From the IMG/VR virus record IMGVR_UViG_3300008224_000199: DNA of 7,107 bases. One strand, written 5' to 3'. Below, one piece after another: positions 495 to 7,107 of this stretch. The translations under genes were made by a program, and so were the position numbers. The notes under the pieces are model-generated. The model saw nothing but the letters and a program-made list of their open reading frames with translations. It was not told the DNA's origin and ran no database searches. Origin of the DNA: a virus. The number at the start of each line of letters is the position of its first letter. The stretch's first letter is position 1.

Positions 495-869
495 ATGCTA
501 ATAATTGAATTTGAAACTAAAAATACTGTTGATGATGATTTTCCTAATAATCGTGCTGATGCTAAACCGGGTGCTAAATGGTATGTAAGAAATCAACCTT
601 CTTTACTTTTTAAATCGGCTTCTAAATATCCTGATAAGTTTTTATTAAATTTGTCTTTTTCTTCTTCTGAAAATGAACAAAAAAGTATTGGCGGTTTTAC
701 AGAGGGTCGTTATTTTCTCGATGATGAAGCTTTTTTTCTTGATCCTCGTGATCGTAATAACCCAGCTTGTAATTTTTCAAAGTTGGTACCTGTTACCAAT
801 GCTTCTATTGATTCAAGGATTCAAGAGTTAAAAGATTTAAAGCTTTCTCTTGGTTCTAAGGTTATTTAA
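495..869 (+). CDS. ssDNA-binding protein (gpV / RstB-like), 124 aa
   Basis: It sits directly after the initiator gene, as gV does in Ff and rstB in CTXphi. A purine-rich SD (aaagagag) lies upstream. The sequence parallels M13 gpV as I recall it: MLIIEFETK / MIKVEIK, KYPDKFLLNL / EYPVLVKITL, EGRYFL / PGLYTV, SKLVPV / LRLVPA. Confidence 0.6.
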   Translation: MLIIEFETKNTVDDDFPNNRADAKPGAKWYVRNQPSLLFKSASKYPDKFLLNLSFSSSENEQKSIGGFTEGRYFLDDEAFFLDPRDRNNPACNFSKLVPVTNASIDSRIQELKDLKLSLGSKVI

Positions 870-932: not shown

Positions 933-1124
933 ATGAAAAAATCTACACGCGTTCTTGGTGGTCTTGGTTTAGCTTCTGCTGCTTCTGCTTCAATGGCTGC
1001 TGTTGATGCTGGCGTTACTACTGCTTTAACTGCTGCTGGTACTGACGGTGCTACAGTTGGATCGGCTGTTTTAGTTGTAATCGTTGGTATTGCGGCTTTT
1101 AAATATATTCGTCGCGCTCTTTAG
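933..1124 (+). CDS. Major coat protein precursor (gpVIII-like), 63 aa
   Basis: A signal peptide MKKSTRVLGGLGLASAASASMA is followed by a ~41-aa mature peptide. That peptide has an acidic/small N-terminus (AVDAGVTTALTAAGTDGA), a hydrophobic core (VGSAVLVVIVGIAAF) and a basic DNA-facing C-terminus (KYIRRAL). This is the classic inovirus coat architecture. Confidence 0.85.
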   Translation: MKKSTRVLGGLGLASAASASMAAVDAGVTTALTAAGTDGATVGSAVLVVIVGIAAFKYIRRAL

Positions 1125-1145: not shown

Positions 1146-1169
1146 AAGGGGGCTTTTGCTCCCTTTTTT
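1146..1169 (+). terminator. Rho-independent terminator-like hairpin after the major coat gene
   Basis: The stem gggggc (1148-1153) pairs with gctccc (1158-1163), with one G-U pair. The loop is tttt and a T6 run follows at 1164-1169. Flanking aa/tt extend the stem. The position is analogous to the strong terminator after gVIII in Ff phages. Confidence 0.5.
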
Positions 1170-1485
1170 AATTATGCCTAATTTATATAAATCTTACTGT
1201 TATTCATCCCTTGATGAAGTGGCTCAAGCTGTAAAATCTCAAGTTTTTACGGGTGACGGCTCTATTATTGTCGATGCTGTTGTTAATGCTTCTAGTGTTG
1301 ACATTACAACTCAACTTTTAACAAATTTTACTGTTTATTCCATTACACCGCCAGCTTGTACTAAGTTGGGTTTTGATAGTTCTTATACGGGAATTACAAC
1401 GGCTGACGCTGTTTACTATGGCTCTGCTGTTTCGCTTGTCCTAATTATTGCATGGGGCATAAAAATAATTAGAAGGGCTTTATAA
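1156..1485 (+). CDS. Membrane-anchored virion/assembly protein with a coat-protein-like C-terminal anchor (109 aa from TTG 1156, or 103 aa from ATG 1174)
   Basis: The last 21 aa, GSAVSLVLIIAWGIKIIRRAL, align without gaps to the coat C-terminus GSAVLVVIVGIAAFKYIRRAL (11/21 identical, including GSAV, K and IRRAL). The purine-rich aggaaggggg lies upstream of TTG 1156. The start is ambiguous because the terminator hairpin overlaps 1156. Confidence 0.6.
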   Translation: MLPFLIMPNLYKSYCYSSLDEVAQAVKSQVFTGDGSIIVDAVVNASSVDITTQLLTNFTVYSITPPACTKLGFDSSYTGITTADAVYYGSAVSLVLIIAWGIKIIRRAL

Positions 1486-1486
1486 A

Positions 1487-1555
1487 ATGGATGTTCCTAA
1501 CTTACTAATAATATTTTCAATTGTGGGGGCTGTATGGATCGCTATAAGCAATTGA
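1487..1555 (+). CDS. Possible 22-aa hydrophobic micro-protein (MDVPNLLIIFSIVGAVWIAISN), a candidate gpVII/gpIX-type cap protein
   Basis: The ATG is 1 nt after the preceding TAA (tataaaATG), and agaaggg lies 9 nt upstream. The peptide is a single hydrophobic helix. It overlaps the gIII-like start by 22 nt in another frame. It is too short for statistical support. Confidence 0.25.
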   Translation: MDVPNLLIIFSIVGAVWIAISN

Positions 1556-2763
1556 AAATATTTTTAACTTTTGTATTATTAACTTTTTCTAATTCTGCTT
1601 TTTCTGTTCCTGCTGGTTATGTTTCTTATTTACAAACAATATATTATCAAAATTGGGTAAATGCTGGGGGTTATGCTGCTTCTTGTCCTGATTCCCCTCA
1701 ACCTTTTACTCAAGAGGAGGGGGGTTTGACTTATGTTTATTGTGAAGATCCTAACCCAGATTGTTTACCTGAGCAATATAGAGATCCTGTGACTCAAGAA
1801 TGTATTTTTTCTCCCGATTGTGGCTCTATTAATTATGATCCTGATGGCTTTTACCCTGACGGTTTTTGTCCTAATTTACCCGTTAATGCTGATTCTCACC
1901 CTAGTATTAATTGTCAATTTCCTGAAGGTGTTGCCGCTGTTCCTGAATGTACTCTTCAAGAATGTTCTGATGGTTCTCTTTTGAATCAATTTTCAACTTG
2001 TCCATCTCCTAAAGAATGTTCTGATGGTTCTGTTGTTTATGGTGCTAGTGCTAATTGTCCGCCTGAATTATTCTTATGCTCGAATGGTGAGACTGTTTTA
2101 TCTTTAGATCAATGTCCCAGTGCTACTGAAGATGTAAAAACTTGCTGGGATTTCACTGTAGTTCCTCTTAGTTTTGATTGTGCTTTGCAGCCCATTGACA
2201 ATGGAACGCCTGTTGATCCTGAAAACCCTTTAAAAATTTGTCCTGATGGTTCCCAGATTGACGCTTTAACTCCTTGCCCTGTTTTGGTGACTGGTAGCTC
2301 AAATATTAATGATACTTCTACATCTTCGGGAAGTGAAACAACTACAACAACTACAACTAATTCTGATGGTTCTACGTCTACTTCAACTTCAACAACAACA
2401 ATCAATGAAACAACAGAAATTAATTTAGATGGTTTAAATAGTCGCTTAGATAATATTAGTAAAAACACGTTTGATGCCGCTAAATCAGGGCGTGAAATTG
2501 CTGATTATATGATCGAACCTTTTACTGATTCTTTTACGTCTGATCCTGTAACTACCGAAGAAATACCTTTTACTTTTGCTCCTGTTTCTTTGTCCTCTGG
2601 TACGGGTTGCCCAGCTCCTCAAACATATTCTATGTCTTTTGGTTCTATGACTTTTAATAATCAGCCGATTTGTGATTTTGCTAGTGGTATTAATTCAATA
2701 GTTTTGGCTGTTTGTTCAATGATTGGTGTTTATATCTTAATAGGAGGTATTAGAAATGCTTAA
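1534..2763 (+). CDS. Minor coat / host-adsorption protein (gpIII-like), 409 aa
   Basis: The signal peptide MDRYKQLKIFLTFVLLTFSNSAFS is followed by a Cys-rich N-terminal region and a Thr/Ser linker (SSGSETTTTTTTNSDGSTSTSTSTTT). The C-terminal domain has a Cys pair followed by a TM anchor (GCPAP...ICDFASGINSIVLAVCSMIGVYILIGGIRNA), as in M13 g3p. Its position after the coat genes is also consistent. Confidence 0.8.
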   Translation: MDRYKQLKIFLTFVLLTFSNSAFSVPAGYVSYLQTIYYQNWVNAGGYAASCPDSPQPFTQEEGGLTYVYCEDPNPDCLPEQYRDPVTQECIFSPDCGSINYDPDGFYPDGFCPNLPVNADSHPSINCQFPEGVAAVPECTLQECSDGSLLNQFSTCPSPKECSDGSVVYGASANCPPELFLCSNGETVLSLDQCPSATEDVKTCWDFTVVPLSFDCALQPIDNGTPVDPENPLKICPDGSQIDALTPCPVLVTGSSNINDTSTSSGSETTTTTTTNSDGSTSTSTSTTTINETTEINLDGLNSRLDNISKNTFDAAKSGREIADYMIEPFTDSFTSDPVTTEEIPFTFAPVSLSSGTGCPAPQTYSMSFGSMTFNNQPICDFASGINSIVLAVCSMIGVYILIGGIRNA

Positions 2764-3040
2764 CGCTTTAAAGCTTTTTTTTGTTGGTTTAGTTGATACT
2801 TTTGGAGCTAAAGTTTTAGCCTCGTTAGGTATGGGTTTTATTTCTTATGCTGGTTATGCTGCTGTTGTTGATACTGTCATAAGTACAGTTCAAGCTAATT
2901 TTTCTGGGATTGGTGGCGATACTCTTTCTTATATTACGCTTGCTGGTTTTCCCACTGGTTTTGGTATTATTCTCGGTTCTGTTGCTACCCGTGCCACTTT
3001 AGCGAGTTTATCTAAATTAGGTAAATTGAGTCCAGTATGA
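2756..3040 (+). CDS. Minor coat protein (gpVI / Ace-like), 94 aa hydrophobic
   Basis: The protein is strongly hydrophobic and Gly/Ala-rich with several TM-like segments. It lies between the gIII-like and Zot-like genes. Its start overlaps the gIII-like stop (ATGCTTAA) and its stop overlaps the next start (ATGA), which indicates translational coupling. Confidence 0.65.
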   Translation: MLNALKLFFVGLVDTFGAKVLASLGMGFISYAGYAAVVDTVISTVQANFSGIGGDTLSYITLAGFPTGFGIILGSVATRATLASLSKLGKLSPV

Positions 3041-4230
3041 TTAATTTAATTACAGGTGTGCCAGGTTCGGGTAAATCTGCCTATGCTTTAACTGTAATGT
3101 TAAAGGAAATAGAGCAGGGCAGACCGTTGTTTGTTCATGGTATCCCTAACTTAAAGATTCCTCATACTTTAGTAGTTTGTGATTCGCCTACCTGTGAAGT
3201 TTGTCCTAAGCCACCTGTTGAACCTATTGCGCCTGTTGAGCCTCCTGCTGATTCTCCTTTTTTCCTTTTTTATGATTATGATACTGATTTACGTAATTAT
3301 GAAAGAGAATTACATGGTTATAATGTTTTAAAAAACTCTTTTGATTCTTTGTTACGTGCTGACCAGTGGCATCTGTGGGCACCAGATGGTGCTTTATTAT
3401 TTTATGATGAAGTACAAAATGTTTATAGACCAGTTTCTTCTAGTGCAAAGATTTTACCCAGTATTGCAGCATTTGAGACTCATAGACATAAAGGCTTAGA
3501 TTTTTACCTCGTTACACAGTCACCGCTTTTAATGAATGCTAATGCAAGGCGTTTAACTGGTAAACATATCCATCTTAGACCAACGTGGGCGGGTCGTTTT
3601 CAATATGAATTTCCTGAATGTAACGATAATACTAAAAATACTTCTTCGGGCGTTAAAAGTTCTTATAAATTAAATTCTAAGGTTTTTTCTTTATATAAAT
3701 CTGCTTCACTTCATACAAAACAATCAAAGAAAATCCCGTCTGTTGTTTATGGTTTGGTTGCTATTTTCTTTATATTTGGTTTATTGGCTTATAAATTATC
3801 TGACCGTTTTGAATCTGTTGGTCAACCGGTTGCGGTTGCTTCGCCTGTTTTAAGTCCTTCATCTATTCCTTTAAAATCAAAACCTTTTAAACCTTCTTTA
3901 AATGATCGTGATTTATTTTCTGTTTCTAAATCTAAAGTTACATTTTTAGATAAATTAATGAATGATTATCGACCACGCCTTTCCGCCTTTGTTGCGCGTA
4001 GTGGCTTTGGTGGTTTAACCGGTTATGTTGAGTTTTATCAAAATAAAAATTTAGTCGAGGTTTTTAGTTTTGATGAATTACACGGTTTAGGGGTTGCAAT
4101 AGTTAAAAAGTCCTATGGTGTTGATCTTGTAACAAGTTTCGATTCTTATCCTGTTTCGAGTTGGTATTTGCCTAAGCCCAAACAAAAATTTAATTCAAAA
4201 CCACAAAAGGTAGCTTCTAATGACTCCTAA
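3037..4230 (+). CDS. zot: Assembly ATPase, Zot / gpI family, 397 aa
   Basis: Walker A is GVPGSGKS (aa 7-14) and Walker B is ALLFYDEVQNVYRP (compare Zot AFLFIDECGRIWPP). FETHRHKGLDFYLVTQSP matches Zot FDMHRHHGWDICLTTPN. KKIPS precedes a single TM segment (VVYGLVAIFFIFGLLAYKL), followed by a periplasmic C-terminal domain. Confidence 0.9.
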   Translation: MINLITGVPGSGKSAYALTVMLKEIEQGRPLFVHGIPNLKIPHTLVVCDSPTCEVCPKPPVEPIAPVEPPADSPFFLFYDYDTDLRNYERELHGYNVLKNSFDSLLRADQWHLWAPDGALLFYDEVQNVYRPVSSSAKILPSIAAFETHRHKGLDFYLVTQSPLLMNANARRLTGKHIHLRPTWAGRFQYEFPECNDNTKNTSSGVKSSYKLNSKVFSLYKSASLHTKQSKKIPSVVYGLVAIFFIFGLLAYKLSDRFESVGQPVAVASPVLSPSSIPLKSKPFKPSLNDRDLFSVSKSKVTFLDKLMNDYRPRLSAFVARSGFGGLTGYVEFYQNKNLVEVFSFDELHGLGVAIVKKSYGVDLVTSFDSYPVSSWYLPKPKQKFNSKPQKVASNDS

Positions 4231-6135: not shown

Positions 6136-7107
6136 ATGTTTGAATTTATCCAATTAATTGACGGGCTACACATGTATCAAGATCATGAGATAGCTTTACC
6201 TTTTTTAGGTGATACCCGTGAAATTACTGTTGATGTTCAAACGGGCGATTTTCTTGCAGAGCGTCAGCCTAGCTATACTTATGAGGGTTCTTATACAACT
6301 TCTATTTTGATTAGGCTTTCTGGTCAACGTGTCACTATTTCTCGTGGTAATCCTTCTAAAGTAAATCGTTTAGATAATTTGTTTGGTTACAAGACTGTTG
6401 ATGAATGCGTTTTTGTTTATAACCAAATTCTTTTGTCTTTGGGTTTACCGCCTTTTACTCGATGTACTAAGCGTTGGCAGTTGATGGGCGAGGATGGTAA
6501 AAAAGTTAGAAATTTTAGTAATGGTGCGATTATTACTGAAATTCACACAACCACTAATAAATGTGTAGGTAAAGGAAATGTTAGGGATTATTTACGCGGT
6601 ATTTCTACTCAACGCTTAAGAAATTCTATCCCGCATTTAATGCCTAATGGTTGTACTGTTCAATGGCTTTCTAAATTGGGGAATGCTTCCTTAGTTCATT
6701 CTTCTGTTTATGACAAAGCGAACGAAATTGAATTACATCAACTTCCTAAAATTAAAAGGGCTTTTGGTGAAACATCTGACGAATACAAACAATTAAAAAA
6801 AGTTCATGAATACTGTTTAGAAAAAGGCGTTGCACGTTTTGAAAATAAAATAAAAGCAAGATCATTAAAAAGAGATGAACTCCAATACTGGGGGTTATCC
6901 GACTATTCAATACTAGATAAAAAACAATTAGAATTTTTAAATATAGATAAAAAATTAAGTGTGAATGCTATGACTATGCAAACAATAAGCGAATTATTAA
7001 AAGAAGAGGGCGTATGTAAATCGATTCAAGCTGCTAATGCTACGTCTTCTTACTATTTCATGTGGTTACAGGGTCAAACTTTTGATCTTAAAAAAACACA
7101 GGTTAGG
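6136..7107 (+). CDS. Replication initiation protein (Ff gpII-like), N-terminal 324 aa. It runs off the window end and continues at 1..294.
   Basis: My own translation from ATG 6136 has no stop to 7107. It is missing from the ORF track because no stop falls inside the window. Motifs match M13 gpII as I recall it: NPSKVNRLDNLFG / SPAKVLQGHNVFG, ITEIHTTTN / ISRIDATFS, GVARFENKIKARSLK / GLVRFEARIKTRYLK. Confidence 0.85.
   Translation, partial: MFEFIQLIDGLHMYQDHEIALPFLGDTREITVDVQTGDFLAERQPSYTYEGSYTTSILIRLSGQRVTISRGNPSKVNRLDNLFGYKTVDECVFVYNQILLSLGLPPFTRCTKRWQLMGEDGKKVRNFSNGAIITEIHTTTNKCVGKGNVRDYLRGISTQRLRNSIPHLMPNGCTVQWLSKLGNASLVHSSVYDKANEIELHQLPKIKRAFGETSDEYKQLKKVHEYCLEKGVARFENKIKARSLKRDELQYWGLSDYSILDKKQLEFLNIDKKLSVNAMTMQTISELLKEEGVCKSIQAANATSSYYFMWLQGQTFDLKKTQVR
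6985..7107. repeat. Terminal redundancy, copy 2 (identical to 1..123)
   Basis: This is the same 123-nt string as the window start, and it is in frame within the initiator ORF. Confidence 0.95.

Follow-up and report, generated by a model that had tools for sequence, protein, structure and literature searches.

Candidate minor coat proteins of inoviruses: a large unnamed family built on a coat-like C-terminal helix

In the filamentous phage f1, the N-termini of the coat proteins point toward the round (leading) tip of the virion, the basic C-termini of pVII and pIX are directed toward the DNA, and pIX alternates with pVIII in the first layer, displayed proteins being possible only on the N-termini of the tip proteins (PMC10175506). 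Outside the Ff group, pVII and pIX cannot be recognised in most filamentous phages, and many integrative inoviruses do without them; the start of assembly is not understood, and how the leading end is capped is acknowledged to be an open question (10.1101/2023.12.30.573655). Likewise, PA0722 of Pf4, a gene in gp7-like position, is only "thought to" resemble pIX (PMC13502202). The present analysis concerns a gene of 103 amino acids (aa) in the IMG/VR virus record IMGVR_UViG_3300008224_000199, a stretch of 7,107 nucleotides (nt) which is referred to at its full length as the window. The gene occupies positions 1174-1485 (stop included) on the plus strand, follows the major coat gene of an inovirus and belongs to a large family without a name. 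The last 27 residues of its product resemble the end of the coat protein, and the family is presented here as a candidate for a type of minor coat protein in inoviruses that is based on a coat-like helix.

The coat protein of the window ends in GSAVLVVIVGIAAFKYIRRAL and the product of the 103-aa open reading frame (ORF) in GSAVSLVLIIAWGIKIIRRAL. Aligned without a gap at the exact C-terminus, the last 21 residues are identical at 11/21 positions and reach a BLOSUM62 score of 44, which was attained in 0/100,000 full shuffles (p<1e-5) and with p=1.9e-4 (0.019%) in block-wise shuffles that left the hydrophobic block (14 residues) and the basic tail (7 residues) in position. Against the same coat tail, no 21-mer taken from a membrane segment of gIII, gVI or gI scores above 21. 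BLASTP returned a longer match of 16/37 residues with one 6-residue gap and E=2e-4 (GITTA......DAVYYGSAV.. against GVTTALTAAGTDGATVGSAV..), which takes in most of the mature coat (GVTTA...IRRAL), the overall match length being 27-37 residues and going beyond the 21-mer comparison. An earlier note on this DNA had described the gene as carrying a paralog of the coat anchor, and the C-terminal sequences and diverged codons (CGT CGC GCT CTT against AGA AGG GCT TTA) which it gave were confirmed. The two segments share 54% nucleotide identity, use the same codon at 5/11 of the identical residues and are joined by no DNA repeat; therefore their relation is old and not that of a recent repeat, as the earlier note had already proposed from the codons and as the width of the family also indicates.

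The same likeness was found when the family was compared with the coats as a whole. The coat-like module of the window protein comprises residues 77-103 (1402-1482, plus strand), was delimited by hhalign, shuffles and the family hidden Markov model (HMM), and consists of a conserved Asp78, a Gly/Ser, a hydrophobic helix and a C-terminal K-x-I-R-R-A-L. With 74 members set against 21 coats, hhalign paired the final 27 columns of the two profiles (Asp78 up to the C-terminus) at a probability of 88.9% and a score of 34.6. The maximum score in 150 shuffles of all coat alignment columns was 15.4; in 150 block shuffles preserving pre-helix, helix and tail, the mean was 12.4 (standard deviation 3.3) and the maximum 22.6, whereas the reversed profile scored 11. 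Phage_Coat_B was the only one of 24,736 Pfam families to be matched by more than one member (9/74 at E<0.01, best 3.6e-5), and the coat PHROG phrog_7106 was matched by 8/74. A reciprocal HMM test covered every ORF of 20 aa or longer in the six frames of the retrieved loci. Here, the best matches of the family HMM after its own members were the coat proteins of every locus, aligned from HMM positions 74-77 to 103, and the best matches of the coat HMM, after the coats and one coat of Ff type (Phage_coatGP8) in locus L006, were full-length family members; gIII and gI were never matched, and gVI no better than at E 5.6, close to the cut-off. It is conceivable that two hydrophobic helices with basic tails resemble each other by chance or in a generic manner, given a short region of 21-27 residues with low complexity and a window protein which is itself not significant against Pfam Coat_B or the coat PHROG. 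This explanation is highly improbable, as the generic layout retained in the family block shuffles reached the observed score in 0/150 cases and in the pairwise comparison in 0.019%, the other membrane helices of the same phages remained unmatched, Phage_Coat_B alone recurred among the Pfam families and the likeness persists in homologs down to about 25% identity. The loss of similarity in homologs, which the earlier note had named as the outcome speaking against its claim, was thus not observed, and the hhalign, Phage_Coat_B, phrog_7106 and reciprocal HMM results agree that the likeness is real, specific and kept across the family.

Furthermore, the C-termini stand in exact register (offset 0) in 7/7 compared pairs with the gene located after the coat. 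The tails of cognate coat and gene are IRRAL/IRRAL in the window, IRRAI/IRRAI in L025, IRKSI/LRKNF in L024 and LRRAV/LRRAI in L017. Cognate pairs scored 39.3 against 33.5 for non-cognate ones (permutation p=0.004, n=11). This co-variation of the tails is no more than suggestive, given the relatedness of the genomes and the dominance of a few pairs. Twenty-seven residues do not decide between duplication of the neighbouring coat gene and convergence under the constraints of packing and DNA contact; the adjacency of the two genes favours duplication.

The gene itself has to be read slightly differently from the earlier note, in which a protein of 109 aa was taken to start at TTG 1156. More than 80 relatives open with the conserved N-terminus MxLYxxYCY, and since homologs begin with this motif, the start is placed at ATG 1174; the six extra residues of the longer version are not conserved and the TTG codon sits in a hairpin loop. 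A word-indexed search found two close relatives only; an exhaustive profile search yielded 83 cluster representatives (50% identity, E<=1e-3). Almost all of them match end to end and are 95-120 aa long, so that the N-terminal domain, previously regarded as novel, turned out to be shared, as part of the whole protein, by at least 83 sequence clusters. In the family alignments, Cys9, Cys62, Gly66, Asp78 and Lys97 are invariant or nearly so and the tail has the consensus AWxIKxLRRxL; the window protein fits its own family profile over the full length, with Cys9, Cys62, Gly66, Asp78 and the basic tail all present. Every named member is called "hypothetical protein", and NCBIfam holds no family for the 103-aa protein. 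Against Pfam, the window protein gave no match at E<=0.1 and stayed below the gathering threshold of Phage_Coat_B, and among PHROG profiles it matched only phrog_9110 (3e-4) and phrog_10413, both with its C-terminal part. Neither the ORF nor three other full-length family members had a relevant match in GenBank phages.

The comparison with L002, a 90%-identical variant, revealed how the gene evolves. Over the whole gene, the rate of synonymous substitution (dS) was 0.63 and the ratio of non-synonymous to synonymous rates (dN/dS) 0.11. All amino-acid differences fall into one variable patch at 1270-1329 (plus strand), i.e., codons 33-52 in the region of a predicted beta-hairpin, where 15 non-synonymous and 7 synonymous changes result in a dN/dS of 0.55, while the other 83 codons contain 0 non-synonymous and 25 synonymous changes. 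From these ratios and the clustering of the changes, a translated and strongly constrained gene with one fast-evolving surface is deduced.

The part ahead of the coat-like module, residues 1-76 (1174-1401, plus strand), was delimited by alignments and AlphaFold and bears the motif PPxCxxLGFDxSYTG. Of its cysteines, Cys62 (1357-1359) is invariant and Cys9 (1198-1200) nearly so, being kept in at least 90%. Structure prediction, one of the checks proposed in the earlier note, was run with AlphaFold on a 17-sequence alignment and gave a mean pLDDT (AlphaFold's per-residue confidence) of 83.8; an earlier model from three sequences was poor (pLDDT 58). The model predicts a small alpha/beta domain ahead of one long helix, with short strands at 3-5 and 8-10, a helix at 13-21, strands at 31-38, 41-48 and 51-57, and a bridge at residue 61 beside Cys62. 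The long helix at 76-102 corresponds to the coat-like module, with block-mean pLDDT values of 91-97 over residues 81-103, and the variable patch maps to the surface of the predicted beta-hairpin. Foldseek comparison of the model with PDB and BFVD returned nothing better than E 0.2 and a TM score below 0.36, and the family profile had 0 matches among PDB sequences.

The N-terminus is not hydrophobic (Kyte-Doolittle value of -0.3 in a 19-residue window), which bears out the earlier observation that a signal peptide is missing. Across the 74 members, the N-terminal domain is enriched in Ser, Thr, Tyr and Asn and contains 3.8% Lys and Arg against 9.5% Asp and Glu, with a mean net charge of -4.6, while the last eight residues average 2.8 Lys/Arg and are practically free of acidic ones. 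Exactly two cysteines occur in 53/74 members. Because of this asymmetry of charge, an N-out, C-in topology is predicted, in which a putatively disulfide-bonded domain would lie in the periplasm and the protein would be oriented like the mature coat. Export of N-terminal tails without a signal peptide is known where these carry few positive charges, e.g., in ProW and the extended Pf3 coat. In P0087, a signal peptide is fused ahead of the conserved start, in line with export. Read-through or frameshifting from the coat gene was rejected as a source of a signal peptide, since the frames differ and TGA 1129-1131 closes the ORF frame upstream. A fusion of coat and ORF was likewise discarded; its second helix would break the positive-inside rule.

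These topology signals by themselves say only that the protein is membrane-anchored with a periplasmic domain, and they would equally suit a protein of the inner membrane which never enters the virion, i.e., an assembly helper or a host-directed factor acting, for instance, in superinfection exclusion via a periplasmic receptor component. The coat-like helix would then bind the coat protein or the pI complex within the membrane. The variable patch at codons 33-52 also fits a surface for host interaction, and small phage proteins encoded next to the coat can be host-directed, one example being PfsE/PA0721 of Pf4. Nevertheless, a plain anchor needs neither the register nor the Asp-Gly-helix-K..RRAL pattern nor the co-variation with the coat tail, and in 11/11 independent loci the gene stands inside the structural block with none of the variability of accessory genes; a non-virion role is accordingly considered rather unlikely.

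The order of coat, hairpin, family gene, a mini-ORF and gIII was observed in these 11 independent loci, namely L006/L007, L012, five Methylococcales contigs from metagenome-assembled genomes (MAGs; L015-L019), L009 with a 69-aa version, and the distant members L023-L025, and gVI and gI/Zot come next wherever the contig continues (8 loci). The same order is present in L002, the variant with a swapped replication module. Thus, the question raised in the earlier note, whether related inoviruses carry the coat-tail paralog, is answered in the affirmative. The five genome-collection matches of the closer subfamily (L015-L019) all come from Methylococcales MAGs (Methylomarinum, Methylovulum, Methylococcaceae), which suggests methanotroph hosts for the phage group of the window; inoviruses of Methylococcales were not mentioned in the literature searched.

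Directly after the coat gene, a GC-rich hairpin followed by a T-run spans 1144-1169 on the plus strand (GGAAGGGGGC / TTTT / GCTCCCTTTT) and, together with the T-run, ends 4 nt ahead of ATG 1174. With -16 to -18 kcal/mol and a z-score of about -2.2 to -2.7, it looks like an intrinsic terminator, and a hairpin was found at the equivalent position in 10/10 related intergenic regions folded (nine independent loci and L002, the close variant of the window phage), the stems differing and a T-run being present in most. A scan for consensus terminators missed the hairpin at 1144-1169. In Ff phages, a terminator follows gene VIII, and for Pf1 a rho-independent terminator is annotated at the equivalent place. 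No Shine-Dalgarno-like sequence precedes ATG 1174 except the purine-rich 5' arm of the hairpin (AGGAAGGGGG), which is part of the stem. As the hairpin after the coat is conserved in position, the gene is predicted to share a weakly transcribed distal unit with gIII, gVI and gI.

Low expression behind a terminator, if it occurs as predicted, would also lead to sparse incorporation and hence suit a decorated coat variant which is scattered along the shaft as a natural mosaic display and is not a tip protein. The coat-like module covers the whole lattice-packing part of the coat, and engineered phages tolerate sparse large pVIII fusions (type 88 display vectors). However, with 11/21 identical residues many lattice-facing positions of the helix differ from the coat, the family often has a Trp/Tyr (AW, or AY/AF) that the coat lacks, and the surface-exposed N-terminal segment of the coat is replaced. 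Moreover, short relatives occupy the gene positions of tip proteins in other inoviruses, so that a place along the shaft appears improbable.

The 103-aa protein is therefore regarded as probably, if far from certainly, a low-copy minor virion protein inserted through its coat-like helix, since a coat-type helix combined with an N-terminal globular domain fits the tip position of f1 best. Within this virion reading, and by analogy with pIX, the leading tip is tentatively named as the most likely site. The C-terminal helix would act as a reverse signal-anchor by which the N-terminus comes to lie in the periplasm while the RRAL tail stays cytoplasmic; the acidic, Lys/Arg-poor N-terminal domain would cross the membrane without a signal peptide, and its two conserved cysteines would form a disulfide. 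At extrusion, the coat-like helix may take up coat-equivalent positions of the lattice, with the basic tail directed to the DNA and the domain of 75 residues on the outside. At the leading tip, the protein would serve as a pIX-like cap or initiator bearing a displayed domain, a position in which no neighbours above are needed and in which the RR tail would add to the basic ring meeting the packaging hairpin. In a wider sense, inoviruses with coats of Pf1/Xf type could cap their leading end with a coat-derived protein which has kept the lattice helix and the DNA-binding tail and which carries a disulfide-bonded, locally hypervariable tip domain opposite pIII; this generalization is possible, yet doubtful.

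Several points weigh against a minor virion protein at the tip. The co-variation test comprises 11 related genomes and is driven by few pairs, and descent and convergence are inseparable here because membrane helices readily yield false positives in profile comparisons. A full-length homolog was not detectable in any cultured phage of GenBank, and it is unusual for some 80 residues to be exported when a signal peptide is missing. The tie to the "minor coat" and "g7-like" proteins of PE226 and the Pf-like phages concerns the C-terminal module only, and the annotations "minor coat" and "gp7-like" are themselves positional guesses. The mini-ORF stays next to gIII when the relative of the gene sits upstream of the coat, and a partnership of the two is thus not required. 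Besides, the choice between leading tip, trailing tip and shaft is made by analogy with f1 alone.

The mini-ORF just mentioned lies at 1487-1555 on the plus strand, with its ATG 1 nt past the stop of the 103-aa gene, and its 22-aa product, MDVPNLLIIFSIVGAVWIAISN, is a single hydrophobic helix; the reading frame overlaps the start of gIII. Equivalents were found in L002, L005, L009, L012, L015-L019 and L023-L025, with lengths of 19-28 aa across loci and a consensus of roughly M-D-x-x-S-L-x-I-I-F-x-x-V-G-A-x-W-I-x-L-S-N, and a mini-ORF also stands just ahead of gIII in Ralstonia phage PE226, Pseudomonas phage 62-2 and L008, all of which have a relative of the 103-aa gene upstream of the coat. 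In PE226 (L020), it encodes MEGYFVMLAFLGAAWILFS in the unannotated gap 1036-1179. Compared with L002, its dN/dS is 0.06; it matches no PHROG family and is annotated nowhere. In size it fits pVII/pIX, without the basic C-terminus of these proteins, and its product may be a small virion or assembly protein that has been overlooked, possibly a second small tip subunit. The earlier statement that no gpVII/gpIX homologs of normal size are evident was consequently wrong in part, with this conserved 22-aa ORF being present; it stood insofar as the window protein and the 74 members gave no G7P/G9P-type match in Pfam or PHROG.

If the tip reading is true, the protein would amount to N-terminal phage display as it occurs in nature, and it might form a second module in contact with the host or exposed to immunity. 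The missing tip proteins of a large phage group would then be this protein and the product of the unannotated mini-ORF (19-28 aa). The family offers a concrete and widespread candidate for the end cap, for which the coat-type helix supplies a structural rationale, and it points to a smaller conserved gene missed by annotation, including that of the cultured Ralstonia phage PE226. A displayed domain would further be a natural scaffold for display outside the Ff phages and a possible determinant of host interaction.

The genome surrounding this gene is that of a complete circular inovirus of 6984 nt, in which bases 1-123 are duplicated exactly at 6985-7107 as an assembly overlap of 123 nt. The apparent lack of a replication gene was recognised as an artefact, since the replication initiator Rep (380 aa, Phage_CRI / G2P_X_C type in L006) runs from 6136 to 294 across the window ends and was thereby hidden from the ORF listing. 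A 124-aa protein at 495-869 (plus strand) takes the position of gV, the ssDNA-binding protein, without a Pfam or PHROG match; L015 encodes a similar protein in the equivalent position. The major coat gene (933-1124, plus strand) encodes a 63-aa precursor with a signal peptide and a mature form of about 41 aa, which matches Pfam Phage_Coat_B (1.8e-15) and phrog_7106 (1.2e-18) and has 23 close homologs, all with a C-terminal ..AFKYIRRAL or similar. Behind the 103-aa gene, a gIII-like adsorption protein of 409 aa (1534-2763, plus strand) was assigned by position and architecture, i.e., signal peptide, Cys-rich repeats, Ser/Thr linker and C-terminal anchor, its PHROG matches being weak and confined to the C-terminus. 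It is followed on the plus strand by a gVI-like minor coat protein (DUF2523; 2756-3040; Pfam 1.1e-15, phrog_1242 1.4e-18) and a gI / Zot-like assembly ATPase (3037-4230; phrog_197 5e-55, Pfam Zot 3e-18). Searched as DNA, GenBank phages contained nothing similar to the window, and Rfam and tRNA scans of the window were empty.

Within gIII, short direct repeats at 1952-2034 and 2239-2252 (plus strand), with a spacing of 54 nt, code for Cys-rich units (..ECSDGS..). The N-terminal part of gIII (window 1606-1850 against 3830-4100 in L002) is wholly different after a near-identical signal peptide, and the likeness picks up again at ..NPDGFYPDGFCPN.., which looks like a swap of the receptor-binding domain. 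Moreover, where the window has 6136-869, L002 (1567-3014) possesses another replication module with a Rep_trans PF02486 initiator and a 92-aa protein, preceding a near-identical coat and structural block, and the boundary of the exchange lies just upstream of the coat gene. The 11-kb contig L006 contains an identical copy of the window phage and then, at 7787-10928, a second inovirus with its own Phage_CRI Rep and an Ff-type Phage_coatGP8 coat; either two different prophages stand in tandem here or the assembly is chimeric. L009/L010 form one contig of 16.6 kb with a related prophage in two complete tandem copies (Rep, gV, coat, 69-aa gene, gIII, gVI, Zot).

With regard to described proteins, the closest counterpart is the major coat protein B (PF05356; Pf1 and Xf type), with which the 103-aa protein shares the last 27 residues column for column up to the same C-terminal residue, the predicted N-out, C-in topology and the adjacency of the genes. 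It has the C-terminal helix with the K..RRAL tail of a coat; unlike coat protein B, it has neither a signal peptide nor a single-helix mature protein of 40-50 residues, a folded, Cys-containing domain of 75 residues replaces the short acidic N-terminus, and the gene lies behind the terminator-like hairpin and not, as the coat gene does, in front of this presumed terminator of the structural operon. Ff pIX and pVII likewise have no signal peptide, a single helix, a basic C-terminus and a gene next to the coat, and the pairing with a tiny hydrophobic ORF is a further common trait. In contrast to these proteins of about 32 aa, the 103-aa protein is three times larger, contains a globular domain and is encoded downstream of the coat.

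A further comparison leads to small proteins of other inoviruses. The 69-aa protein of L009, which occupies the same position and ends in ..AWGIKILRRTL, is detected by the family HMM at 3e-11 through the C-terminal module only, and it also matches, over its full length, phrog_4644 ("tail protein") as well as PE226 ORF3, which is annotated as "putative minor coat protein" and located just upstream of the coat gene. The family HMM finds PE226 ORF3 and L008 ORF68 at about 2e-6, and 11/74 members match phrog_4644 via the C-terminal module, the window protein itself being without a match. In L008, a relative of 68 aa has matches to phrog_4800 and to the gene annotated as "tail virion protein gp7-like" in 62-2, again upstream of CoaB. 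Full-length matches to phrog_12382 (111-aa profile, function not assigned) were obtained for P0071, P0084 and P0093 and none for the window protein. In Pf1 (L022; 557-808, 821-1069), orf83 has two cysteines and ends in ..SLLRKAK, echoing the coat end ..SMLRKA; the family HMM does not detect it (E 0.27), and judged by its sequence it is the same pattern of tail mimicry in a distant lineage. PE226 ORF3 (phrog_4644), the gp7-like protein of 62-2 (phrog_4800) and Pf1 orf83 differ from the 103-aa protein in their shorter N-terminal parts of about 40 residues, which are not alignable, and most of their genes lie upstream of the coat. All three share with it a coat-adjacent gene and two N-terminal cysteines, and they also have an Asp/Glu, a hydrophobic helix and a basic tail resembling that of the cognate coat.

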